64,000 nucleotides of DNA from the sequence record PX423614.1; one strand, 5' to 3'. Of this stretch, positions 9,869-60,723 are shown one piece after another; position 1 is the stretch's first letter; the number at the start of each line of letters is the position of its first letter. The DNA is from a phage. The position numbers were made by a program, and so were the translations under genes. Below the pieces are notes generated by a model, which was not told the origin of the DNA, did no database searches, and saw only the letters and a list, made by a program, of their open reading frames with translations.

Positions 9869-9944
9869 GCACCCTTAGCTCAATGGACAGAGCAGCGACC
9901 TTCTAAGTCGTTGGTTACAGGTTCGAATCCTGTAGGGTGCACCA
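9869..9944 (+). tRNA. tRNA-Arg (anticodon UCU)
   Basis: cloverleaf: acceptor GCACCCT/AGGGTGC, D-stem GCTC/GAGC, anticodon stem-loop with TCT at positions 34-36, T-arm ACAGG-TTCGAAT-CCTGT, encoded 3' CCA. Confidence 0.85.
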
Positions 9945-10682: not shown

Positions 10683-10909
10683 TTTATGTTATTGGTTGGT
10701 GGTTGGCAGCCATTGTAGTTAAATGGTGCTTCAAAACCAATACACTCTACAACTTCTTCCATTCCTCATGGAGTGGTAAGCCTGATGAATACTCTATTTG
10801 GACGGTGATATTCTTCTGGCCTTTTATGCTGATCTTTATCCTCTTCTTACCTTTACTTATGTTGATAGGTTGGGTAATGGATAAGGTGACAATCTTTGTT
10901 ACTAAGTAA
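10643..10909 (+). CDS. small integral membrane protein
   Basis: two to three hydrophobic helices; true start uncertain. Confidence 0.4.
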   Translation: MERSMVTAAYVLLIYVIGWWLAAIVVKWCFKTNTLYNFFHSSWSGKPDEYSIWTVIFFWPFMLIFILFLPLLMLIGWVMDKVTIFVTK

Positions 10910-16033: not shown

Positions 16034-16832
16034 GCGCGCTTTCCTTATTGGCTCTGACCCTGAAATGTTTGTTCGTACTGCTTCCGGTATTATCACCTCT
16101 GTGGCTGGTAAGCTGGGCTGTTCTAAAGATAATAAAATTGATCTGGCTCCTGATGTTCGTCTTCAAGAAGACAACGTTCTGGCTGAGTTTGATATTAACC
16201 CACAGAAAGGGTTTGAAGCGTTTGATGATAATATTCAGCGTGGTATTGATCTGACTAACAAAGTTCTCAATGAACGTGGCATGGAGGCAGCACTTGGGAT
16301 TAGCTCTCATGTGTTCACTTCAGAAGAACTTGAATCATTCCACCCGTCAGCTTTTGTATTTGGCTGTACTCCTGATTTCAATGCCTTCACTGGACAAAAG
16401 AACCCTTCACCAGTCGCAACTGATAAGGGTTTGCGTACTGCTGGGGGTCATGTGCACCTTGGTGTCTCCGGGACTTTAGAGATTACTCGACAAACTCAAA
16501 TGATGTTGGGTGTGTTGTGTGATTACTTCCTGTCCTTGCCAGCTGTGATCATGGATAAAGACACTCGTCGTAAAGAGTTGTACGGAAAGGCTTCTGCCAT
16601 TCGCTACAAAGATTACGGTATTGAATATCGTTCTCTTTCTAACTTCTGGATTGGTGATAAGTCCACTCGCAAGTTTGTTTATGAGCAAGTGGATAAGGTT
16701 GTTCAGGGTTGTGATATGGAAGTGTTGATGTCACTTCACTCTCGCCTTCCAATTGAAAAGCTTCACAACATCATCAACAGCAACGATGTTAAAGAAGCGG
16801 ATAAATTCTCCTCTAAACTCCAGATTGTATAA
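16026..16832 (+). CDS. amidoligase-like protein, paralog A
   Basis: shares four ordered motifs with the 17465-18565 product: GSDPEMF/GIELEVEG, LAEFxxxP/CELVxxxP, GGHVH/STHVH, YGIEYRS/GSVEFRIS; start 16026 has a GGAG RBS. Confidence 0.4.
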   Translation: MTKRAFLIGSDPEMFVRTASGIITSVAGKLGCSKDNKIDLAPDVRLQEDNVLAEFDINPQKGFEAFDDNIQRGIDLTNKVLNERGMEAALGISSHVFTSEELESFHPSAFVFGCTPDFNAFTGQKNPSPVATDKGLRTAGGHVHLGVSGTLEITRQTQMMLGVLCDYFLSLPAVIMDKDTRRKELYGKASAIRYKDYGIEYRSLSNFWIGDKSTRKFVYEQVDKVVQGCDMEVLMSLHSRLPIEKLHNIINSNDVKEADKFSSKLQIV

Positions 16833-16841
16833 GGTGATATT

Positions 16842-17468
16842 GTGAGCTTGTTAAGAGATTTTCAACACTATTATTGTGGAACATGGATTGCTCAGCGATC
16901 ACCTGATGGTAAAAACCTCCCTCTATATGTGCTTGATGTTCGTCAGCAAGGTAACTTTGATATCGACGACTATTCACACGACGCTGAAATGTCTTTAGTG
17001 TTTGAGGCGGAACGCTGGACTAAAAACTCTGAAGGTCAGTTTGAACGTCAGGTTGTTAGTAATATCCCAGTGTTTGATCACAGCCTCATTCTGGAGTCTC
17101 CAGATGTAGGATACCTTCAGCATGGTAATAACATGGTGAGCTGGACCCATATCAACCCTGTTCGTCAGCGAGCTAAAGGCTTGATGGGGAATAAACTTCG
17201 TGGTGCTCCGCCTTCTCTCGGACGTTCGATTCCGGGTGATTTGGTGTACAACCTGTTTAATCCAGAGTTTGAAGGGTTGGTTACTCGTTTCATCTATATC
17301 AATCCTGTCGATGGAAAAGTTTATTACAAAGGAGCTTACGTTGGAAACGTGCTTCTTGAAGCTGGTTATGGCGACAATGGTCGTCAATCTTTAAACCTTC
17401 TGGAGAAGTTCAAGCATATTTCTTCAGACCTGTCATCATATAATGTAGAGTTGGTGGAATCATTATGA
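16842..17468 (+). CDS. hypothetical protein (208 aa), ligase cluster
   Basis: ORF track; between the two amidoligase-like paralogs. Confidence 0.5.
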   Translation: MSLLRDFQHYYCGTWIAQRSPDGKNLPLYVLDVRQQGNFDIDDYSHDAEMSLVFEAERWTKNSEGQFERQVVSNIPVFDHSLILESPDVGYLQHGNNMVSWTHINPVRQRAKGLMGNKLRGAPPSLGRSIPGDLVYNLFNPEFEGLVTRFIYINPVDGKVYYKGAYVGNVLLEAGYGDNGRQSLNLLEKFKHISSDLSSYNVELVESL

Positions 17469-18565
17469 CAACCGTAGCACAAGTTTTTGGATACCGTAAC
17501 CCTCGCTTATCTGAACCGCATCCAAGTATTGCTTTTCAGTGTGGTGTTGGTATTGAGTTAGAAGTCGAAGGTACAACTGACATTGACGCTGATATGTGGG
17601 TTTGTACTGAAGATGGCTCTCTTCGTGATGGTTGTGAATTAGTATGTGCACGACCTTACAACGGTGAAGAACTACTTCGTGCTATTAACAATCTGAGTGA
17701 AGCAGTACAGGATTCCGGAGCCGAGGGAACTTGGCGCTGCTCCACTCACGTTCATATGGATATGCGTGACGCTGATAGTAATATCCTTAAGAAAGTTATT
17801 CTTGGATGGACGTTCTATGAAAAGATGATGTTCAAATGTTCTGGATACCATCGCTATCGTAGCAACTTCTGTCCAGCTTTTGCTGTCGTTCAAGCACAAG
17901 TTATGAATGCTTCGTCAGCGTTCAACCGAGACGGGGAAGCTTTCTTCCACTCTCTTGTTAATAGCTGGGATAAATATACCTCCCTTAATCTTTTGCCTCT
18001 ATCTCAATTTGGTTCTGTTGAGTTCCGTATCTCAGAGCCGAAGTGGAAAAAGAGCCAACTTCTGAATCTGGTCAACCGCTTCTTGGTTCTCAAGAAACTG
18101 GCTGTTGAATATGCAGATTTAGACAATGAAGCTTATGTTGAGAAGTTGAATGAGCTGCGCTTCGCTCCTATGATTCAACATCTACCCCTAGACTATACTC
18201 CAAGAGACAGCGATCTCACTGAAGGGTATCGTCTTGCTCGTGATATTCTCTTCTGTCGTGAGCAATCTGTAACTTTGGTTGGTCGTGTTCGTGTGCAACA
18301 GACTGGCCCTGATGGTGAAGTCCTTATCAACTTACGTGATATGAATGACTTCTATGGTTTCTTGGGATATGTGCGCGGTAATGCCAACAGTGTCTACGAA
18401 GAGATCATGACCTACTACACCCCTCAGATTGAAAGCACTCGAATCGCAACGGTTCGTGAAATTCGTCACATATTTGCATTGATGCGTGAATCAGGTAGCA
18501 GTGATGATAACGTCACTGGTTATATTCCAGACCATCTGGAAATGCAATTAGAACGACTGCTGTAA
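17465..18565 (+). CDS. amidoligase-like protein, paralog B
   Basis: E-x-E, E, H-x-H and E-x-R motif series shared with paralog A; this pattern is typical of glutamine-synthetase-like carboxylate-amine ligases. Confidence 0.4.
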   Translation: MTTVAQVFGYRNPRLSEPHPSIAFQCGVGIELEVEGTTDIDADMWVCTEDGSLRDGCELVCARPYNGEELLRAINNLSEAVQDSGAEGTWRCSTHVHMDMRDADSNILKKVILGWTFYEKMMFKCSGYHRYRSNFCPAFAVVQAQVMNASSAFNRDGEAFFHSLVNSWDKYTSLNLLPLSQFGSVEFRISEPKWKKSQLLNLVNRFLVLKKLAVEYADLDNEAYVEKLNELRFAPMIQHLPLDYTPRDSDLTEGYRLARDILFCREQSVTLVGRVRVQQTGPDGEVLINLRDMNDFYGFLGYVRGNANSVYEEIMTYYTPQIESTRIATVREIRHIFALMRESGSSDDNVTGYIPDHLEMQLERLL

Positions 18566-18642
18566 CACAACGGGCGCTCTTATACAGGGCGCATTTAAAG
18601 GTTAATTAGATGAAAGGGTTTACCCTTCAGGTGGATTAGAAA

Positions 18643-20676
18643 ATTTGTGGTATCGTATTAGCTGGCGGCAACATGACCTCAGCAGATTTGGACATTTTCA
18701 ACCAACTTCTGTATGCTGGTGTTTTCCGTGGACAGCACTCAACTGGTGTGTTTGGTCAGCGTAAAGGTGAAAAGCAAGTCTTCTCTTATAAAGAAGCTCT
18801 TCCTTCTTATGCTTTTATGCTCCAGACAGAATATACAAATATTACCAAAGGGCTTACGAACTACGTAGTTCCTCCTTCGTGGATTGTTGGTCACAGCCGA
18901 CATGCCACTCGTGGGGCTGTCAATGCTCGAAATGCTCACCCATTTACTCACGGGGATATTACTCTGGTTCATAATGGAACCCTGTTAGATCAAGATCTCC
19001 TTCCTGACAGTAAGCGTTTCGAAGTTGATAGTGAAAACATCTGCCACTCAATTAACACCATTGGAGCAGCAGAGACTATCCAAAAACTGGATGGTGCATT
19101 CACTTTGATTTGGCATGATGCTAAAGACAACACGCTTCACATTATCCGTAATGATGAGCGTCCTTTCCACCTAGCCCGCTGTGGTTTGGATTGGTTTGGA
19201 GCTTCTGAAGAAGCTATGCTTATGTGGATTTTAGAGCGTTCTAAGTCCCATAAGAACCGTATCAATGACCACTTCGAATGTAAAGTGGGAACTGAGTATA
19301 TCTTTGATGTGTCTAACAGTCGTATGACTCTGGTTCAAGAGGTGGAGCACACGCTTCCGGTTTTTACGGTAACGAGTCGCTGGGGCGGCTATTACTCGAA
19401 CTCCTCTCTTTATCAGAACCAACAGACAAACAAATCAAGCAGCAGCACAAGCGACATTTACGGAAACAAAGACGACAAGCCCGGCGTGACAAGCGGAGAC
19501 ATTCGTCGTCGTAAAGCGATTGAAGACCAGAACAAACTGGCTGCCGATCGTGGTCTTCCTTATCGTCGTGATGGTCGTGTGGATATTATTCCTCATGAGT
19601 TCCATGCTTATAACAACACAGATCGTGGTAAGATGGTTGGTTACATCTACGATGATAAAGCTCAAGAGTATGTCGAAGGGGATGTTCACAACGTAGCCAA
19701 AGATGAATATCTTAAGGCTCTTGAAAACCCAAAGGTAGTATATCGCGGGACGATTGCTTGTATCTCCGAAGTGGACAGTATGATTCGCCTCGTACTAACT
19801 TCAGGGCTGTTTGTTGATGCTACAGATAAGGAGCCTCAAAGCACTACTGCTGATTTTGATGATGATATCCCTTTTGATGCAGAGGACTCCTTCATCACTA
19901 AGAATGGTGTAGAAGTCACTCGTAAGTTCTGGGAATCTCACTCTCATGGTGACTGTGGTGGTTGTGATAAGCACATTGACTGGAAAGATGCTCGTAAGGC
20001 TGTGTTTGCTTATCAGGCATACTGGCATCCAGAATGCTTCGAAGCGTTATCTAAAACCTCTGAAGAGGAAGAAGATGTGCCTTTGGGTGTATGTGCTATC
20101 TGTGGTGAAGTCAAGACTGATTTCGAGTTTGACAACGAAATGAGTAAACTTCGTGGTGAAGACGTTTGTTATATCTGCTCCAAAGAAATCAAAGATAAAG
20201 TAAAGAATGTTACTCTATCTGAAGGTTATATTTGGACTAAAGCAGTAGACACAACCAACCCACGTCGTCCTGAAGTAGCTGTTCGTGTTGATGAACGTAT
20301 GCTTAGCCGTATGATTGTAATGGTCAGCTCAGCAAAACGTTCAGGGGATATTACACTTGCAGATGTTCCTAATTCGTATTTGGAAAAACGTGGTGGTGAT
20401 ACTTATGCCATCTCTGTTTATGGTCCAAAGAATTCCCCAAAGGAGGTACCCGCTGAGAAAGCGGAGACATTTCCAGAAAAGTCAACCTCTCTCCGAAAAA
20501 CAGTTGTCAGTTATGATGGACAACGAACAGCTGAGTTTACAAAAGCCCTCTGGACTTCAATTGGGTTTTGTGCAGTCTGTTATAAACAAATTCCGTGGCG
20601 TGATGCAGAAACTTGCTCACTGAACAAAGAAAACAGGGTGATCTGTAATTCAGATTACTGTAAAGGTAAACACTAA
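18643..20676 (+). CDS. class-II glutamine amidotransferase-like domain fused to Cys-rich zinc-ribbon-like C-terminal region
   Basis: in-frame upstream extension encodes CGIVLAGG, matching the N-terminal nucleophile block (M)CGIVG of PurF/GlmS/AsnB; RG..STG, GHSRHATRG, NAHPF and VHNG motifs; C-terminal CGGC, CAICGE, CYICSKE, CAVCYKQ clusters; first in-frame ATG is at 18673. Confidence 0.55.
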   Translation: MCGIVLAGGNMTSADLDIFNQLLYAGVFRGQHSTGVFGQRKGEKQVFSYKEALPSYAFMLQTEYTNITKGLTNYVVPPSWIVGHSRHATRGAVNARNAHPFTHGDITLVHNGTLLDQDLLPDSKRFEVDSENICHSINTIGAAETIQKLDGAFTLIWHDAKDNTLHIIRNDERPFHLARCGLDWFGASEEAMLMWILERSKSHKNRINDHFECKVGTEYIFDVSNSRMTLVQEVEHTLPVFTVTSRWGGYYSNSSLYQNQQTNKSSSSTSDIYGNKDDKPGVTSGDIRRRKAIEDQNKLAADRGLPYRRDGRVDIIPHEFHAYNNTDRGKMVGYIYDDKAQEYVEGDVHNVAKDEYLKALENPKVVYRGTIACISEVDSMIRLVLTSGLFVDATDKEPQSTTADFDDDIPFDAEDSFITKNGVEVTRKFWESHSHGDCGGCDKHIDWKDARKAVFAYQAYWHPECFEALSKTSEEEEDVPLGVCAICGEVKTDFEFDNEMSKLRGEDVCYICSKEIKDKVKNVTLSEGYIWTKAVDTTNPRRPEVAVRVDERMLSRMIVMVSSAKRSGDITLADVPNSYLEKRGGDTYAISVYGPKNSPKEVPAEKAETFPEKSTSLRKTVVSYDGQRTAEFTKALWTSIGFCAVCYKQIPWRDAETCSLNKENRVICNSDYCKGKH

Positions 20677-21125: not shown

Positions 21126-22361
21126 ATGACTACTCGTATCCGTGTTCTTCCGTATGGCCCGTCTGATTCTGTTAACGCTCTGGTATCTGCTATCAGTGAT
21201 ACTATCCGTGATGAACGCATCAATGCTAACGTGATGGGGCTTCTTTCAGAGAATAGCCGCTGGCGTTCTCGTGAAGGTGATGTGGTTGTTAACTACGGGA
21301 ACCGTCGCTATCCTGAATCATTCTTTGGTTCTGCAACCGTCCTTAACCGTACCGCAGCCTTATATATGGCAGCGAACAAACGTCGTGCTTTCAGTGTGAT
21401 GGACCAAGCAGGTGTTAAAACTGTGGAATACACAGATGTTCAAGAGACTGCTCAGGAGTGGTCAAACACTGGTAATATTGTGTATGAGCGCCATGAGCTG
21501 ACTGGTCACTCTGGTTCGGGCATTGTTGTTGTAGAACCGGGTGATTCAATTGGTCAAGCTGAACTGTACACCAAAGGTATTCAAGGCCCACGTCGTGAAT
21601 GGCGTGTCCATGTGTTCAAAGGTGTAATCACCTATGTTCAGAAGAAGATTCGTCGCAATGGTTATCGCGAAGACCCTAACTATCGTGAAGATATTCGTAA
21701 TCACCACACTGGCTGGGTTTACTCAAGCTCCTTCACAGATGCTCCGAATGACGCCTCTCTGATCAATGCAGTGAAAGCTGTTGAATCAATGGGTCTGGAT
21801 TTCGGTGCAGTTGATATTATCACCAAAGGTCAAGAAGCGTGGGTACTGGAAGTTAATACAGCACCGGGCCTGACTGGTACAACTCTGGATACTTACCGTC
21901 ATAACATTCTTGAGTTTGTTAAAGCTCAAAACCCTCTCTATACTCCTCAGTATAAAGTGGTTTACCAGACTCCGATTGAAGATGGAGACGGTGAGTTGGT
22001 GGATGATATTGAAAGTGCTGATGATGAAAACTTTGCACTGGAAGGACAAGTAGCACAGCCGATTGATTCAGTTGATGTGGTTCCTGAAGAAATGCAACTG
22101 GAAGGTCAGATGAATACTCAAACTATTCGTAATGCACCTACTGGCTACACTTTGTCTCGTGGCTACTGGATTGCAAATATCCGTCATGTCCACAACAACC
22201 TGCAACCGAATGCAATGTCTGCCAATGTCATCCTGTTCTGTGATGGTCGTAACTTCTACCGCAGTGGTTGGAACGTTCCGGTCAATCCAGTCCAGATTCA
22301 TAACCCTCGCAAGTTAGAGTCTGTCAATGTTGAAGGTAGCGAAGTAGCAGTAACTCTGTAA
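21126..22361 (+). CDS. ATP-grasp family ligase (RimK-like)
   Basis: GSGIVVV, E-W-R-VHVF and the DFGAVDII...VLEVNTAPGL block typical of ATP-grasp enzymes such as RimK, glutathione synthetase and D-Ala-D-Ala ligase. Confidence 0.6.
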   Translation: MTTRIRVLPYGPSDSVNALVSAISDTIRDERINANVMGLLSENSRWRSREGDVVVNYGNRRYPESFFGSATVLNRTAALYMAANKRRAFSVMDQAGVKTVEYTDVQETAQEWSNTGNIVYERHELTGHSGSGIVVVEPGDSIGQAELYTKGIQGPRREWRVHVFKGVITYVQKKIRRNGYREDPNYREDIRNHHTGWVYSSSFTDAPNDASLINAVKAVESMGLDFGAVDIITKGQEAWVLEVNTAPGLTGTTLDTYRHNILEFVKAQNPLYTPQYKVVYQTPIEDGDGELVDDIESADDENFALEGQVAQPIDSVDVVPEEMQLEGQMNTQTIRNAPTGYTLSRGYWIANIRHVHNNLQPNAMSANVILFCDGRNFYRSGWNVPVNPVQIHNPRKLESVNVEGSEVAVTL

Positions 22362-33823: not shown

Positions 33824-34138
33824 ATGACCGATAAGGCGAAACGTGATTATGCACAAGAACGAAGAACTGCAATCGCAAGGGGTGAGACCGGCGTTGGTAG
33901 CAAGAGCGGAGATGCTCAGCGCCACCGTGCACGTCGCATCGTTGAAAAGCGCGATGGAAAAGCTGCTGTCCGAGGTAAAGATGTTGGACACAAACGATCA
34001 ATCAAGTCGGGAGGTTCTAATGCGTCAAGTAACTTACGTGTTGAATCAGTCTCTCGAAATCGCTCGAACGGCGGCAAAAGTGGAGATCGTGCTGGAAAAT
34101 CAGCAGGCGGTCGCAAAGGAGCTTTAAGCTCAAGTTGA
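33824..34138 (+). CDS. highly basic Arg/Lys/Gly-rich protein
   Basis: AAGGAG RBS 9 nt before ATG; TAATGTATA motif 36 bp upstream; an alternative overlapping frame (33843-34127) also stays open. Confidence 0.45.
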   Translation: MTDKAKRDYAQERRTAIARGETGVGSKSGDAQRHRARRIVEKRDGKAAVRGKDVGHKRSIKSGGSNASSNLRVESVSRNRSNGGKSGDRAGKSAGGRKGALSSS

Positions 34139-53529: not shown

Positions 53530-54327
53530 TTATCTGTAAATGTCAGTACCTATGCTAGACAGACGTCTCAGCACAGCTTGTGTTTGTGGACTATATCGAG
53601 AACCTGCTTGAGTAGGGGCATGTGCTCTCTGTACAGTTTGAGAGTTAGGCTGTTTTCCTGCAAGCATAGAAGCAGCTGCCAACACAGCATTACCAAAGTT
53701 CTGTTGAGGTTTTTGATCTTCTCCAGACTGTTGTTCATCAGAGTAAAACTCAACAGGACGACCACCCAAAGCCCCAGCCTTGCTTGCAGCCATCTCTGCT
53801 TGAGTGGGAGCATTTGCAGCACCTTCTCTGGCCAATGTGTTAGGGTCAAACTGGTCCACAGGTTGTACTGCTTTCAAAGCACCTACAGGATTAGCCACTT
53901 GTGCCGCTGCTGTGTTCTTATCAAAGAATGGTAGGAACAGCTTATTATTCATTGAATCTAAAGCTTGAGGTGTAAACCCTTTCTTACCAGCAAACATTTG
54001 CTTAGCACCACCAGTCCCTTCTGAATATCCCACCAAAGCCTTCCTCACATCACCGTCAAAAGCTTTCAGGTTATCTCTTAAATATCTAGCACCCATGTCA
54101 ATATTCTTTGCAGGGTCTAACCTATCTTCAAGTTTATATCCATAATCTTTAGCCAACCCCTTACTGATTTGCATTAAACCTACTGGCCCTGTACCAGATT
54201 CAGCAGAAGGTCTTCCACTAGACTCTCTCTGAATAACTGCGTGAATGAGAGCAGCAGGAATGCCATATTTCTTAGAAGCTTGCTGAACCAAAGGGTCAAG
54301 CTCCGACACTCCTAGTATCTTTGTCAT
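53530..54327 (-). CDS. virion-associated lytic transglycosylase (SLT domain)
   Basis: QRESSGRP...GPVGLMQISKGLAKDYGY matches the SLT catalytic E-S...GLMQ motif. Confidence 0.7.
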   Translation of the reverse strand: MTKILGVSELDPLVQQASKKYGIPAALIHAVIQRESSGRPSAESGTGPVGLMQISKGLAKDYGYKLEDRLDPAKNIDMGARYLRDNLKAFDGDVRKALVGYSEGTGGAKQMFAGKKGFTPQALDSMNNKLFLPFFDKNTAAAQVANPVGALKAVQPVDQFDPNTLAREGAANAPTQAEMAASKAGALGGRPVEFYSDEQQSGEDQKPQQNFGNAVLAAASMLAGKQPNSQTVQRAHAPTQAGSRYSPQTQAVLRRLSSIGTDIYR

Positions 54328-54339
54328 AAAAACTCCTTA

Positions 54340-55371
54340 TCATAAACCTGCAAAAATCTTAGCAGCGTTGATTACAGGGATGGAGATATTAACAGCAGCA
54401 TTAGAACCTAAGTCATAGCTGTTAGACCATTGGAACATATATCTACCATATCCAGTTCCTATTGAAGATCCTGACATGGTATGAGAACGCATTTGTTGAT
54501 AATACCAACCACCCCCACTTCCTCTAATAGCTCCAACTCCAGAAGACAGAGGAATCATAGGATAAGCTAAGCCAGTATCTCCACCTGCTGAGCCTACGAA
54601 AGTGTCTACTGTAAAAGGAGACCTATAAGTAGAGAATACGCACTGAGTAGTTCCGGGAGAGTATATATTTAAACCGCCGTTGTGTTCAGGAACCCCAGCA
54701 CCATTACAAAATACAGCAACCCTAGCAAACACAGAACCACCTTCATTAGTGTTGCCGTTGTTATAAGACCTGTTTTGATAAACTCGAATCACCCTATCTC
54801 CTGATGTATAAGATAAACCAACACCACCATCAGACCAGTTAGCAAAAACTACAGCATTAGGCATATAGAAACCACCAATATCAGGTATCTGTAGAGCGTT
54901 GTTTATAGTTCCTTGCCAAGCCCAGATACATTGACCCACAACCCCAGCATCTGAGATAGAGAAGTAGTCAGCTGTATTAGAGAAGGTTATTCCATAGTTC
55001 CTATCAGCTCTTGGGTAGATTTGATATATATTGAAACCACAGTCAAACAAGGGGTTGCTTCCCGGATTTTGATTTAATGTAACCCTGAACGATGTGTTAT
55101 TCTCTACATAAATATTGTTGACACAATATACATCAGGAATTAAGTTAGGAGGAACCTCCCATTGCCAACAAAGAGATCCTGTTGGTACAATCACTATCTG
55201 ACCACTCCCATCCCACCCGCTAATAGGAAAAGACCTTCCAGCCCCATTAAAGTTAAAACTCCCACTTATTGAATTTTTTATTTGAGGAAAAGTACTTCCG
55301 CTATCAATAAAGAGAGGAGCCGGGGAAGCTGGTCCCGGTCCTACAGGTTGACACCATATTCCATAAGCCAT
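54340..55371 (-). CDS. tail-associated protein
   Basis: ORF track; Gly/Ser/Asn-rich. Confidence 0.5.
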   Translation of the reverse strand: MAYGIWCQPVGPGPASPAPLFIDSGSTFPQIKNSISGSFNFNGAGRSFPISGWDGSGQIVIVPTGSLCWQWEVPPNLIPDVYCVNNIYVENNTSFRVTLNQNPGSNPLFDCGFNIYQIYPRADRNYGITFSNTADYFSISDAGVVGQCIWAWQGTINNALQIPDIGGFYMPNAVVFANWSDGGVGLSYTSGDRVIRVYQNRSYNNGNTNEGGSVFARVAVFCNGAGVPEHNGGLNIYSPGTTQCVFSTYRSPFTVDTFVGSAGGDTGLAYPMIPLSSGVGAIRGSGGGWYYQQMRSHTMSGSSIGTGYGRYMFQWSNSYDLGSNAAVNISIPVINAAKIFAGL

Positions 55372-55372
55372 A

Positions 55373-56353
55373 TTACCAACTCCCTATCCTGATTCTCAGT
55401 GCACCACTCCCGTCATAGAAATCGATTCTGTTCCCATTCATCCAGAGCTGTGCTCCACCTGTACCACCCATCACAAAATCCCCACCAACAGTAAGTCTCC
55501 AGTTTGAACCACTCATAGAGCCAGCAGTGATCTTGTTAGCTGTAAGATTGGCAATCTGACCATCAGTAATCCACACGTTATCTATCTGAGCAAACTGGAT
55601 ACGAGCATTAGCAATCTGAGCAGTTGTGATATTGACGTTCTTAATATCAGCAAACTCTATCTTAGCTCGACCTCCTTCAAATACAAAAGGTGTATTACCC
55701 GAGTTACCATCACCTACAACAAACTTATCAGCTGTAACTTGGAACTGACTATTCGTGCCGTTGTTAGTTAGTTTGACACCAGCATACCTACCGTTGACAT
55801 TTGAGTTAATTCCCCACGTAGCTTCGTAGTCAGATAGCTTCATATAAGAAGATAGACTGCTGTTAATGTTGGAGATCTCTGTTTGAACTAAGCCAATTTC
55901 CTCTCCCTGCTGGTTTACGATTCCCTCAACAGATTGTATCTTAACCTCATTACCTTCTATAGAAGTTTTAAACCCTGCCATAGAACTTTCTAGCTTAACT
56001 GGCGGTTGTACTGAATTATCCCAAATATCTTCAGTGGACAGATTGCCCATCTGTGTTTGAATATCAGCAATAGCTGTTTCGATCTCTGTAGTAATTCTGT
56101 TTTCAAGTTCATCAAATTGAAGATTCATTGCATTAAGAGCTTTAATCCTAACATCAATTTCTTCATGTATTTCATCAATGGCTTGAAACATCTGATTAGT
56201 TGCTGTACTAACTTTTTGTAGTTCATCATAGACGGCAACGTTGTAAGTTTCTGTATCCTGCACATTGTTTAGAAAACCAACATTGTACGGAAGTGTGGTG
56301 TTGTTTCTACCAGTATTCTTTCGAAAACCTCCAGCACCCATAAGTACCTCCAA
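55373..56353 (-). CDS. tail-associated protein
   Basis: ORF track; N-terminal helical region then beta-rich. Confidence 0.5.
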   Translation of the reverse strand: MEVLMGAGGFRKNTGRNNTTLPYNVGFLNNVQDTETYNVAVYDELQKVSTATNQMFQAIDEIHEEIDVRIKALNAMNLQFDELENRITTEIETAIADIQTQMGNLSTEDIWDNSVQPPVKLESSMAGFKTSIEGNEVKIQSVEGIVNQQGEEIGLVQTEISNINSSLSSYMKLSDYEATWGINSNVNGRYAGVKLTNNGTNSQFQVTADKFVVGDGNSGNTPFVFEGGRAKIEFADIKNVNITTAQIANARIQFAQIDNVWITDGQIANLTANKITAGSMSGSNWRLTVGGDFVMGGTGGAQLWMNGNRIDFYDGSGALRIRIGSW

Positions 56354-56355
56354 TT

Positions 56356-56383
56356 AAAAACAATAAAAGGGGCCGAAGCCCCT
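56356..56383 (-). terminator. intra-operon terminator/attenuator hairpin on - strand
   Basis: on - strand GGGGC-ttcg-GCCCC followed by TTTTATTGTTTTT, between two late genes. Confidence 0.45.
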
Positions 56384-56388
56384 ATTTG

Positions 56389-59300
56389 TTATCTTCGACC
56401 GCCAACACTAAACTCTATGGTTAAACCATTCATAGAAGCATTACTGTTAACATCATTATCTATAACATTATAGAATAGGTATGGATGGTTCAGTCTCACG
56501 GATACATGACGATCTGAGCCTACCCTAAACTCTTTAGTTGAGTGATTGTGTCCATACTCGTTTGAGAATTGACTTCCACCGACTTCAAAAGTATAAGTAC
56601 CTGTACCAGTAACTTGAGGTCTAAATCTATTAATATGTTTTTGATTCCACTCATTAGTGACATTATCAAAATCAATACCAGTTCTTTCTAACCTCATTTC
56701 TAAAGGTTTTTCTATAATCCTATCATTGGTTCTATCATAGATGTAGTCCAGAGCACCAACATCCACTTGATAGAATCCCTTCAGGAAAGAGCCAACTATT
56801 GTAATCCTTTGACGGAAGTTATTAGCATCCTTTCTCCAGACTAATTGGTTAATAGAGGGATCATCCCAAGTGATCTCTTGAAAATCTGCCCAGATTGGAC
56901 CTCTCTCAAGAACTGGTGGATCGACTAACCCAATACACTGAGCATATGGTATTGTACGGAAAGACCAAGTGTCAAACTCATAATTCCAAACAGCGGCTTT
57001 ATTACAAGCAAAACTCTCTTTAGGCTCTCCCGGACCTACATATAAAACCCAAACCTCTTTCTTGTCTTGGTGTAGGTGAACTCTAGTAGCTAGAGGGTTT
57101 ACTAGACAGATCTCATTAATGAGAAGATTCTTGACTCGGTTAGATGCTATAGATTTTTTAGATGCACCATTATGTAAGATCACATCATTTTGAGTTACTA
57201 CGAAGTGTCCACCTTCGACTTCAACTGCACACTCAGGAGCAAGTATGCCAGAGTCATTAAACAGTTTCTTAAACATAAGGGGCTGATATGTGTTATTGGT
57301 TGGAGAACCAATGTAGGTTTCGAACTCCGTGTAAACAAAAAGGTAATCTTTCAGAGGAAGTACATCAATCAAGCTTCCGTTAGAATCTGCTAAATCTATA
57401 TACCCAGCGTACCCATTTTCCAAAGCCTCAGTTTGACCAACAATGTTTGCTGATAGGTCTGAAGTTGTTAAACGATCATAAGCATAATCATCCCAAAGAG
57501 ATGGAGCTTTGTTTTCGTTAGCGAAATTCGACCACCGAAGTCTTAGAGGGTAGTGAGTAGTTACACCAGATGCATTAGATTCCCTCATATTCAGAGCAAA
57601 AAGTCTGTTGTTGAATGCACGAATACGCTCACACTTCCAGTTAAATTTCTTAACAGAAGGGTTGCCATCATTATCAACGACTGTTTGCTCACCCCATCCC
57701 GGAAGATCTACGAAATACTCAGATTCAAACTCTTTGACCTGTGGTGTTTCATAATGAGTGGTAGCCACTGCACAGTTAGAGATTATGGTGTGATACCAAG
57801 GATAGTCGTCAAAAGCATCATAATCTTTCTGAGTCATTTGACTAGCAGTACAAGTAACTTTGATCTCACCTTTACGAATAGCTGTCAGTTTTAGAGATTT
57901 CCCGGTAGTAGATGTGGTTGAAACATATCCTGCTTTGTCCACTGTCCACTGATAGAAATACTCTCCCTCAGGCAAAGCATTGGCTGTAATTACAATATCT
58001 TCCCCAACATCAAGAGAGGCATCGATGATATCTAGTGATAAAGATTGCAACGGAGTATCGCTGGACATGAGTGCAGCTCGTGCAAAACCTTCCATATCAT
58101 TGACGTTTGAGTAATCATAGAAGTTGTTACCTTCATACATTCCTGAGGTATCAACTCCAGATGGCTCATTAACAAAATATAAAACCTCTTCTGATTCGAT
58201 AGGAACATTATTGGTTTCTTCTCGTATAGAATCTACTACAGGTTCTGATAAGGTCATTGCAGAAGTTCGCATCATTCTCCCAGCTAAATCAACCCTCACT
58301 GTACAGGTTGCTGATCTATCACCCTCTTGAGTAACAGCTGTGATTTCAGTAAACCCAGCTAGTAACCCTGTTATTACCGCTTCTGTACTATTTCCAGAAA
58401 CTGTGGCAATGGTAGGATTAGAGGAAGTCCAAGTTATGCTTTTATTGGGAGCATCTGAAGGATTAACCGTAGCAGTTAAAACATACTGAGTACCTCTGCT
58501 CATTTGAACGCTTGTCTGACTCAGAGTGATACTGTCTATCTGAGGTATAACAGTAACTTGACAAGAAGCACTCTTAGTTCCGTTATCAGCAGTTATTGTT
58601 ACAGTACCCTCACCATTAGCAGACAAAGTAGCTGTCAGTGTATTAGCATTAGGTGTTACAGACACAACAGAAGCATTACTAGAGACCCAAGTTACAGGAG
58701 TTTTTCCAGTAACAGCAGTTAGCGTTGTGTTACCACCTTTGCGGACAGTTATTGTATCCTGACTTAAGAAGATACCAGAATCACCATCTATGATGTTTAC
58801 TGCAATCTGAGTACTAATAGATTTATCAGCTGTTGATACAGTAACTACTAAATTCCCTTCTTTTTCATAAGACGTCAAGGTTGCAGTTTTAGAGTTCTCG
58901 GTGTCAGCTTCTACTTTACCATAAGAAGAATTACTAACCTCCCAAACTAAAGCTGTGTTATTAGCATCTTCAGGAAGAATAGAAACTTCCAAGGTTTTAG
59001 TTTGATTGAAATTCATTGAAATAGAAGTTTCTTTAGGAACAATCTGAGAAACAACCGGATATATCTTAATAGAAGCGGAAGCTCTTTTTGTGACAGTAGC
59101 AACCTTTCGGCTAATATCTGTCAAACTTTCATCTGTTAGCTTGTATAGCTTTTTGTCTGTACCAACAATCAGAAAGCTATTACCTGCACTATAGTAGTCA
59201 AAAGGCATTGATATAAAAGAAAGTGGTGTAATCTCTTTATCTTCTTCTACATAAGAAAGAGGGGCATTGCCCCCCGTCTTAAAAACTCTTTGCTCTACAA

Positions 59301-60231: not shown

Positions 60232-60723
60232 TTAATATTTTCCTGTAGTGTATAGATTTGCTTCTGCAACCCTGCGATTGTGAAGTCCCGGACTCCGCTG
60301 CTTTACACCTTTAACAGTTATCTTATCCCAACGTAAGAACTCTGAGTAAACATCACCCTTCACATCTCCGTTGATCACTTTCCTAAGTTTTGAAGCTGAC
60401 AAAGCACCACCACCAACATTAAAGTTGAAAGAAGTGACAGCATCAAATTCATGAGCTAGCATAGGAACTCTTATGTTTTTCTGAGTAGCACGAACAGAGT
60501 CTTGTGTGTCTCTATCTAGCAGAGCTAGACAATCCTCTATAGAATACGTTAATCCCTGTCTAACTGGATACCCATTCATATCGCGCGTAGCCCCAACACA
60601 TATCGTCCAGATACCTGCGGAATCTTGGTAAGCACGAGTTCTCATACCTTCATGCTTCATGATGAATTCCATCCCTTCTGGGCTTAAGCTCAGTTGTATC
60701 GGTGGCAATGCGACATTATCCAT
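60232..60723 (-). CDS. lysozyme (glycoside hydrolase family 24-like)
   Basis: EGMRTRAYQDSAGIWTICVG matches the T4/lambda-type lysozyme catalytic block EGxxxxAYxDxxGxWTIGxG. Confidence 0.7.
   Translation of the reverse strand: MDNVALPPIQLSLSPEGMEFIMKHEGMRTRAYQDSAGIWTICVGATRDMNGYPVRQGLTYSIEDCLALLDRDTQDSVRATQKNIRVPMLAHEFDAVTSFNFNVGGGALSASKLRKVINGDVKGDVYSEFLRWDKITVKGVKQRSPGLHNRRVAEANLYTTGKY

Follow-up and report, generated by a model that had tools for sequence, protein, structure and literature searches.

The phage sequence record PX423614.1, of which a stretch of 64,000 nucleotides (nt) was analysed and is called the window throughout, carries a gene for a class II glutamine amidotransferase whose translation very probably starts at an AUU codon, at position 18643, and not at the first canonical start codon, which lies ten codons downstream at ATG 18673. 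The AUU would be served by a Shine-Dalgarno (SD) sequence with an adjoining hairpin, initiation would take place with N-formylmethionine (fMet), and removal of the methionine would expose the adjacent cysteine as the Cys1 nucleophile. A non-AUG start had been proposed in an earlier note on this DNA and is supported by ATG-TGT at the same place in homologs, by ATT in 97 of 97 records of related phages, by the lack of the downstream ATG in Kuravirus sequences, by synonymous variation of the codons between the two candidate starts, and by alignment of the cysteine with Cys1 of PurF.

Direct reading of the sequence located the following elements of the start site and the gene.

18629-18634, + strand: SD sequence AGGTGG, with a predicted duplex with the 3' end of 16S rRNA of -5.9 to -7.0 kcal/mol.
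18637-18639, + strand: in-frame stop codon TAG, one codon (AAA, 18640-18642) 5' of ATT.
18643-18645, + strand: ATT, putative initiation codon (AUU, to be read by fMet-tRNA), placed by conservation and by the starts of coding sequences (CDS) in GenBank.
18646-18648, + strand: TGT, predicted catalytic Cys, residue 1 after removal of the initiator Met; an invariant alignment column, aligned with Cys1 of Escherichia coli PurF (1ecb).
18673-18675, + strand: ATG, internal Met11; the start codon in the RefSeq records of IME267, SU7, HC-25922 and ECBP2.
18643-20676, + strand: complete amidotransferase gene, of 677 codons counted from ATT and a stop codon.

Between TGT and the downstream ATG the frame reads GGT ATC GTA TTA GCT GGC GGC AAC, translation from ATT giving I-C-G-I-V-L-A-G-G-N-M. 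All coordinates in the earlier note were correct to the base, and AGGTGG and ATT are separated by exactly 8 nt (18635-18642), as it had said; this spacing fits the register that is fixed in the ATT/ATC lineages described below (GGAGG at -13 to -9). Because of the in-frame TAG, no canonical start further upstream is possible for the amidotransferase frame, and since only AAA and ATT separate this stop from TGT, ATT is the sole near-cognate start that retains the Cys, which had likewise been argued beforehand. The program-made list of open reading frames (ORFs) contains a 667-residue ORF beginning at ATG 18673, because ATT is absent from the start codons of that list. A scan of the window for other ATT, ATC or ATA starts accompanied by an SD and a hairpin returned 18643 alone. 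The predicted N-terminal tryptic peptide of the mature protein made from the ATT start (Cys-Gly-Ile-Val-Leu...) is CGIVLAGGNMTSADLDIFNQLLYAGVFR.

Residues 1 to approximately 235 of the protein constitute a class II glutamine amidotransferase domain with Pfam matches to GATase_6, GATase_7 and GATase_4, the first two of which exceed their curated thresholds (53.7 bits with a cut-off of 27 for GATase_6, and 25.1 bits with a cut-off of 25 for GATase_7). A single-sequence search of the PDB with the protein gave no match and a profile search was needed, in which the family profile matched structures of PurF, GlmS and AsnB with E values of 1e-8 to 1e-5. In the profile alignment, Cys 18646 falls on Cys1 of mature E. 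coli PurF (1ecb) and on the Cys of the MCGIVG N-termini of 8w7d and other PurF structures. In an alignment of nine N-terminal domain sequences, 39-83% identical to the window protein, C2, G3, R29-G30, H110-N111-G112 and D129-S130 are invariant, and the RG, HNG and D(S/T)E motifs align with those of PurF and GlmS. Cys 18646 is the predicted nucleophile of a glutamine amidotransferase of the N-terminal nucleophile (Ntn) type. The N-terminus had been taken from its appearance alone as that of a class II amidotransferase with Cys as residue 1, and the Pfam matches, the alignment to PurF Cys1 and the motifs bear this out. In class II amidotransferases the Cys directly follows the initiator Met, and such an arrangement is obtained here only with a start at ATT 18643.

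The window protein has in common with PurF, GlmS and AsnB the MCGIVG-type N-terminus, Cys as residue 1, and the R-G, H-N-G and D-S/T-E motifs. Unlike them, it has no recognisable synthase domain, its C-terminal portion of approximately 440 residues being unrelated and rich in CxxC. That portion (window 19350-20676) gave no family match and contains several CxxC...CxxC pairs, the sole Pfam signal in it being a weak LIM match below the cut-off (E=0.008). The names GlmS-like, purF and 'L-glutamine-D-fructose-6-phosphate aminotransferase' have no support beyond the N-terminal amidotransferase domain.

Since Cys 18646 aligns with PurF Cys1, translation from ATG 18673 would give an enzyme without its nucleophile, as predicted in the earlier note, and the upstream codons for CGIVLAGGN would then be an untranslated relic. 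We consider a start at this ATG very unlikely. It is the first canonical start codon and the one annotated in the four RefSeq records listed above, but the remaining catalytic motifs are intact and would be pointless without Cys1, and the 4-nt ribosome-binding site annotated in SU7 (GGCG/GCGG, within the codons GGC GGC, 4 nt before the ATG) is much weaker than AGGTGG. The comparison with related phages argues in the same direction.

The region matches that of Escherichia phage IME267 (Gordonclarkvirinae, Suseptimavirus), a phiEco32-like coliphage, at every one of 801 compared bases (100% identity), and is 78-99% identical to 97 records of phiEco32-like E. coli and Shigella phages, the number of distinct phages being smaller than 97 because some records are GenBank/RefSeq pairs of one phage. 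A 54-nt query (18597-18650) comprising the leader, ATT and TGTGG was 100% identical in 97/97 of these records, and the same query with ATG in place of ATT gave 98.1% in 97/97, so that no phiEco32-like record has ATG there. Homologs with ATG in place of the ATT, a check suggested in the earlier note, were found among Grimontviridae, where Proteus phage P59, Vibrio phage Vp_R1, Cronobacter phage GAP52 and Salmonella phage SE131 have ATG-TGT (MCGIVLAG) at the exact aligned position and are annotated accordingly. The counterpart of the window ATG 18673 is CTG in the Kuravirus sequences examined and CTC in KBNP1711, so this ATG cannot be a conserved start. Codons 18646-18672 vary synonymously (GGT/GGC, GCT/GCA, GGC/GGG/GGT, GGC/GGA/GGT, AAC/AAT) with one amino-acid change, N to S, and such nearly exclusive synonymous variation is what one would expect of translated sequence; ATT-TGT-GG is kept in every record.

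The comparison of relatives excludes both an error of sequencing and a decaying pseudogene, and likewise a conserved start at 18673. The rarity of ATT starts is the only point in favour of a sequencing or assembly error, or of a decaying pseudogene, and either can practically be dismissed. Both are refuted by the identity of the leader in 97/97 records with no ATG variant; as these records come from many laboratories, the base-call error that had been raised as a possible objection is excluded. Moreover, the ORF is intact over its 677 codons, the SU10 homolog has been seen by mass spectrometry, and the layout recurs in unrelated metagenome contigs.

Two phages outside the set of 97 records are of interest. 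Aeromonas phage BUCT695 (L021, NC_070977.1, 1501-1590; Grimontviridae) keeps the ATT and encodes an amidotransferase 57% identical to that of the window. The leader before this gene is of the phiEco32 type, with 88% identity at the nucleotide level and a single change each in the hairpin loop and the SD. Among the sampled proteins, that of GAP52 is nearest to the BUCT695 protein (63%), and its gene has ATG and a short leader. This points to very strong selection on the leader or else to its passage from one phage to another. Pseudomonas phage O4 (L104, NC_031274.1 41534-42403, reverse complement) has ATC-TGT, with the ATC at positions 151-153, after the hairpin AACCTCgttGAGGTT and CGGAGGAT, and is a cultured-phage example of an AUC start.

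In the GenBank records of phiEco32 (phi32_83), SU10, LAMP and Bas87 the CDS begins exactly at this ATT. The genes of these phages, represented by phiEco32 gene 83 (ABY52884.1, glutamine amidotransferase), are orthologs with an identical 58-nt leader and start region; the window version (Suseptimavirus, IME267) has about 83% protein identity to phiEco32 gene 83 over the N-terminal domain and differs from it by the extra in-frame ATG at codon 11. In RefSeq IME267, SU7, HC-25922 and ECBP2 the CDS begins at this downstream ATG with loss of the first ten residues, and that of SR02 begins further downstream. The RefSeq CDS of BUCT695 starts 33 nt late (11 codons cut), and that of Pseudomonas phage O4 starts 111 nt late (37 codons cut) and is devoid of the catalytic Cys. 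In a spread sample of 60 records, a CDS covers the first ten codons in 9, none is present there in 45, and 5 have no annotation at all.

The ATT start of this gene is known at the annotation level, is inconsistently applied and is not new in databases; since some GenBank records already use it, the core claim is that of another AUU-initiated gene and not a discovery. A further contribution is the documented mis-annotation in RefSeq and in most other records. A literature search, whose reach did not extend to Savalia 2008 and Pavlova 2012, returned no paper on this ATT start, and the papers on SU10, SU7, tf and TC6 are silent about it. The analysis also adds the 54-nt invariant leader and the family-wide arrangement of hairpin, GGAGGAU, N6 and AUU, neither of which was found described in the literature searched; nor was a description of the arrangement found in Rfam.

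The leader between the amidoligase gene and the ATT contains the following elements.

18574-18592, + strand: stem-loop GCGCUCU-UAUAC-AGGGCGC, 9 nt past the amidoligase stop, present in the minimum-energy and centroid folds.
18597-18650, + strand: invariant leader block, AAAGGTTAATTAG ATGAAAGGGTTTACCCTTCAGGTGGATTAG AAA ATT TGT GG, 100% identical in 97/97 Gordonclarkvirinae records.
18610-18639, + strand: mini-ORF ATG AAA GGG TTT ACC CTT CAG GTG GAT TAG (MKGFTLQVD and stop), in frame with the gene, its stop 3 nt before ATT.
18611-18629, + strand: hairpin UGAA(A)GGG-UUUA-CCCUUCA, 7 base pairs (bp) with one bulge, its 3' end touching the SD.

The coding DNA flanking the invariant block has only 20-70% invariant positions per 30-nt bin. 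The segment 18593-18650 (58 nt) is the fourth-longest exact match of the window to phiEco32 in 64 kb of 76% average identity, and one of only two such long matches in non-coding DNA. To judge from these comparisons, the AUU start region is under strong constraint. The hairpin adjoining the SD folds with -6.1 kcal/mol compared with a shuffle mean of -2.1 (p=0.043), and the only change within it in BUCT695 falls in the loop. The fold of the whole leader is not unusually stable (z=-0.36), and the two local hairpins alone stand out.

The first of these, at 18574-18592, resembles a terminator or an mRNA-stabilising hairpin with a poor U tract. Its arms in Kuravirus are GUGCCUC...GGGGCAC, pairing being kept despite changes on both sides, and in one record, that of phage 4E8, a terminator is annotated within the 801-base match that includes this stem-loop.

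The mini-ORF offers ribosomes another route to the AUU: they could start at AUG 18610, make MKGFTLQVD, stop at UAG 18637 and restart at AUU 18643 with the help of the SD. Re-initiation of this kind is in our judgement unlikely, though deserving of consideration. The mini-ORF is in frame, has AAAGG 8 nt before its AUG and its stop 3 nt before AUU, and is invariant in the 97 records; in BUCT695 (MKGLTLQAD and stop) two residues differ but start and stop stay in place, and in three other ATT loci (L039, L066, L071) the end of an ORF or gene further upstream falls at -6 or -7. On the other hand, no ORF ends beside the ATT in L048, L050, L089 and L099, so an upstream ORF is not general to the ATT arrangement. 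Two bases of the mini-ORF AUG, its U and its G, take part in pairs at the foot of the hairpin 18611-18629. In GAP52 the same ATGAAAGGA string is not in frame and provides an ATG start with its SD, because of which the mini-ORF AUG may be a relic. With zero variation of the mini-ORF in the 97 records, selection on the peptide and selection on the RNA are inseparable.

The shared frame also brings up read-through of UAG 18637, which would produce MKGFTLQVD-X-K-I-Cys... with a 12-residue propeptide removed by the protein itself. Self-processing propeptides are known in Ntn amidotransferases, the PurF of Bacillus subtilis having one of 11 residues. Such a mechanism is hardly to be expected here: there is no suppressor tRNA in the 64-kb window, where tRNA-Arg(TCT) is the only tRNA; an in-frame upstream ORF is missing from most other ATT lineages; in L071, TAA stands right before ATT, and the ORF that precedes this TAA is read in another frame; and a strong SD at the correct distance from ATT would have no purpose.

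Other signals were sought in and around the leader. The sigma-70 promoter scan gave none in 18566-18660, and matches in the wider region did not outnumber those in shuffled sequence; the phiEco32 gp36 promoter motif tAATGTATA (PMC4281155) is absent from the leader. Rfam 15 gave no match to the leader on the + strand of 18566-18660, and the search of 18450-18800 gave only sub-threshold matches elsewhere or on the opposite strand. A second copy of the hairpin or leader sequence was not found in the window, the one match with 3 mismatches (53964-53982) being coding-like and probably due to chance. The conservation of the leader is thus not accounted for by a sigma-70 promoter, an Rfam family or a repeated motif. 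A -1 frameshift at AAATTTG (18641-18647) was considered and rejected, as neither frame is the amidotransferase frame and no upstream ORF feeds in.

One of the sub-threshold Rfam matches is to the small RNA ES003 at 18456-18518 (25.9 bits with a gathering threshold of 37, E=0.004); it falls within the 3' part of the amidoligase gene and over a terminator-like stem that a pattern scan picked up at 18499-18518, and is probably due to chance. The string TTTAAATGTAAA recurs 20-35 nt 5' of the gene in L006, L008, L009, L021, L027 and L031, which belong to Grimontviridae and to the ATG sister clade of the phiEco32 group. It has AATGTA in common with the published gp36 motif tAATGTATA, and the window reads TTTAAAGGTTAA there.

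The codon preceding the catalytic Cys was then tabulated in 80 IMG/VR loci encoding relatives of the protein, and was ATT in 13 (5 of them phiEco32-like), ATC in one, TTG in one and ATG in the remainder. An in-frame canonical start upstream is absent in 12 of the 13 ATT loci, L071 having TAA immediately 5' of ATT. ATT or ATC starts occur in about 20 divergent lineages of the amidotransferase family, in which ATG members are about five times commoner than ATT members. In most cases an ATG gene overlaps with the preceding gene or follows it directly (median gap 1 nt), whereas the ATT/ATC genes follow after a gap of 4-161 nt (p=5e-5), and the SD is stronger in ATT/ATC lineages than in ATG lineages with a comparable gap (-8.7 and -6.0 kcal/mol, respectively; p=5e-4).

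A hairpin of 5-8 bp ending 0-3 nt before the SD was found in 10 of 12 ATT/ATC lineages versus 6 of 68 ATG lineages (Fisher p=2.7e-7); in the remaining two ATT/ATC lineages (L069, L089) the hairpin overlaps the first bases of the SD, and the test truncated it. A counterpart of the window hairpin, with its end 1-3 nt 5' of the SD, occurs in 18-19 of 21 ATT/ATC lineages; over these 21 lineages, 15 hairpins individually beat shuffles (combined p=1.4e-12), the stem sequences being all different. The register of the ATT/ATC lineages is fixed, with GGAGG at -13 to -9, A at -8, T at -7 and an A-rich segment at -3 to -1, and none is fixed in the ATG lineages. Lineages sampled without fixing the spacer have the common layout of a 5-7 bp hairpin, GGAGGAT, 6 nt and ATT-TGT.

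In IMG/VR, GGAGGAT-N6-ATT-TGTGG matches 12 family members (9 distinct) and GGAGGAT-N6-ATG-TGTGG matches 1. Apart from three chance matches, the pattern GATTAGAAAATTTGTGGNAT retrieved from the same database only the five phiEco32-like contigs. A metagenome scan for AGGNGGATTAGAAAATTTGTGG retrieved 6 phiEco32-like contigs and 5 distinct unrelated lineages (7 contigs), and in these five lineages TAG-AAA-ATT is followed by ORFs of the family (ICGIWAV..., ICGLVGIM..., ICGIFGV..., ICGIVGIA...).

Several ATT lineages have ATG relatives at 61-72% identity and reach only 44-56% with any other ATT/ATC lineage; because they are nearer to ATG relatives than to other ATT/ATC lineages, the start codon has switched repeatedly. 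Nearest-neighbour identities were used for this purpose since a neighbour-joining tree of the N-terminal domain was too poorly resolved at depth to count ATT/ATG switches.

On account of the approximately 20 lineages with a hairpin, the 12 matches versus 1 for GGAGGAT-N6, the repeated switching and the invariant leader, it is tentatively proposed, with confidence somewhat short of even, that the ATT of the window is one case of a dedicated and selected start module, common to many phage class II amidotransferase lineages and serving a deliberately weak codon that is discriminated against by initiation factor 3 (IF3). The module would begin with a hairpin of 5-7 bp, arbitrary in sequence and with its end 1-3 nt from the SD, and continue with GGAGGAU, an A-rich spacer of 6 nt, AUU or AUC, and UGU-GG.

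As a start codon, AUU is read by fMet-tRNA and is discriminated against by IF3, and the action of deformylase and methionine aminopeptidase exposes a following Cys. In the window, AGGUGG, 8 nt 5' of AUU, would hold the 30S subunit, with the hairpin 18611-18629 directly against the 5' side of the SD; the AUU would be read by the initiator fMet-tRNA, and the two processing enzymes would strip the fMet as they do for PurF, GlmS and AsnB, leaving Cys (18646) as residue 1. The hairpin, the strong SD and the A-rich spacer would render initiation at AUU workable, and the likely purpose of the weak codon would be to keep synthesis low or IF3-sensitive. Since the single T-to-G change to ATG is never seen among the 97 records, we infer that the weak codon is selected, that is, kept on purpose. 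The enzyme may act jointly with the products of the adjacent amidoligase, COOH-NH2 ligase and ATP-grasp genes of the early-gene cluster.

Very few AUU starts have been confirmed; the only confirmed AUU genes in E. coli are infC and pcnB (bioRxiv 10.1101/063800). Like the present gene, infC, which encodes IF3, and pcnB have a conserved AUU one mutation away from AUG, the codon being weak and IF3-discriminated (bioRxiv 10.1101/063800). Unlike them, the gene described here is a phage early gene, and it is not known to have a feedback loop through IF3 or a toxic product. To our knowledge, neither a hairpin adjacent to the SD nor the fixed GGAGGAU-N6 register is a feature of infC or pcnB. The ebpA gene of Enterococcus faecalis is reported to have a rare ATT as the true start, to have been mis-annotated at a downstream in-frame ATG, and to have its expression attenuated by the ATT (PMC4447247). 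It encodes a pilus tip protein in another organism, and its ATT start was experimentally tested, whereas the start proposed here is deduced by sequence comparison.

Several points weigh against the AUU start as set out above, or against the purpose ascribed to it. In E. coli reporters AUU yields roughly 1-2% of what AUG does (bioRxiv 10.1101/063800), and output may be low here because AUU is a poor initiator in such constructs. The SD of the window, AGGUGG, is weaker than the GGAGG of most other ATT lineages, and no N-terminal peptide was found in the text and supplements examined of the SU10 proteomics. Through the in-frame mini-ORF, ribosomes could reach the AUU by re-initiation and not by de novo binding. 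The reasons given for keeping the codon, low expression or sensitivity to IF3, are our own interpretation, and neutral drift between 'AUU plus strong start region' and 'AUG plus weak start region' is a possible alternative, which fits the weaker SDs of the nearest ATG relatives of the ATT lineages.

The neighbourhood of the amidotransferase gene and the tRNA gene of the window are as follows.

17465-18565: Amidoligase_2 gene, the upstream neighbour of the amidotransferase gene.
Ending at 16832: phiEco32-type COOH-NH2 ligase gene, a neighbour.
21126-22361: RimK-like ATP-grasp gene, the downstream neighbour.
9869-9944: tRNA-Arg (anticodon TCT), the only tRNA gene in the window and the counterpart of the tRNA-Arg annotated in phiEco32.

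In SU10 the block consists of early genes, and the amidotransferase was seen by mass spectrometry (PMC4281155). The proteomics table of that work lists the amidotransferase (gp85) at 63.8 kDa (PMC4281155), and the current GenBank CDS (55290-57320, 676 residues) predicts approximately 76 kDa; because of this difference, the SU10 gene model may have changed after publication.

Comparison of the window with phiEco32 disclosed other long exact matches. The segment 10903-10966 (64 nt) is identical in both, lies just past an ORF ending at 10909, appears intergenic and contains the palindromic segments GGATTCTTACGAGAGTCC and GAGATAGGACTTCAGATCTCCTATC; it is a second ultra-conserved non-coding element. 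The two longest matches, at 60479-60555 (77 nt) and 33899-33970 (72 nt), lie within long ORFs, and very conserved coding sequence is the probable reason for them.

For users of these genomes, the truncated gene models describe an enzyme without its nucleophile, and a clone based on them would yield an inactive protein; gene callers that do not admit ATT as a start will repeat the mis-annotation. As regards the biology of the family, AUU or AUC is used repeatedly across one phage enzyme family, with the same accessory RNA layout every time, and in one clade 54 nt around the start are unchanged while neighbouring genes have diverged to 76% identity. If the start module proposed above exists, it could fix a low level of the enzyme or raise that level as host IF3 declines after infection, and lineages mutating to AUG would then lose the hairpin and the strong SD. 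The amidotransferase genes thus offer a natural and easily tested system for finding which mRNA context lets AUU initiate and why a virus would prefer it.

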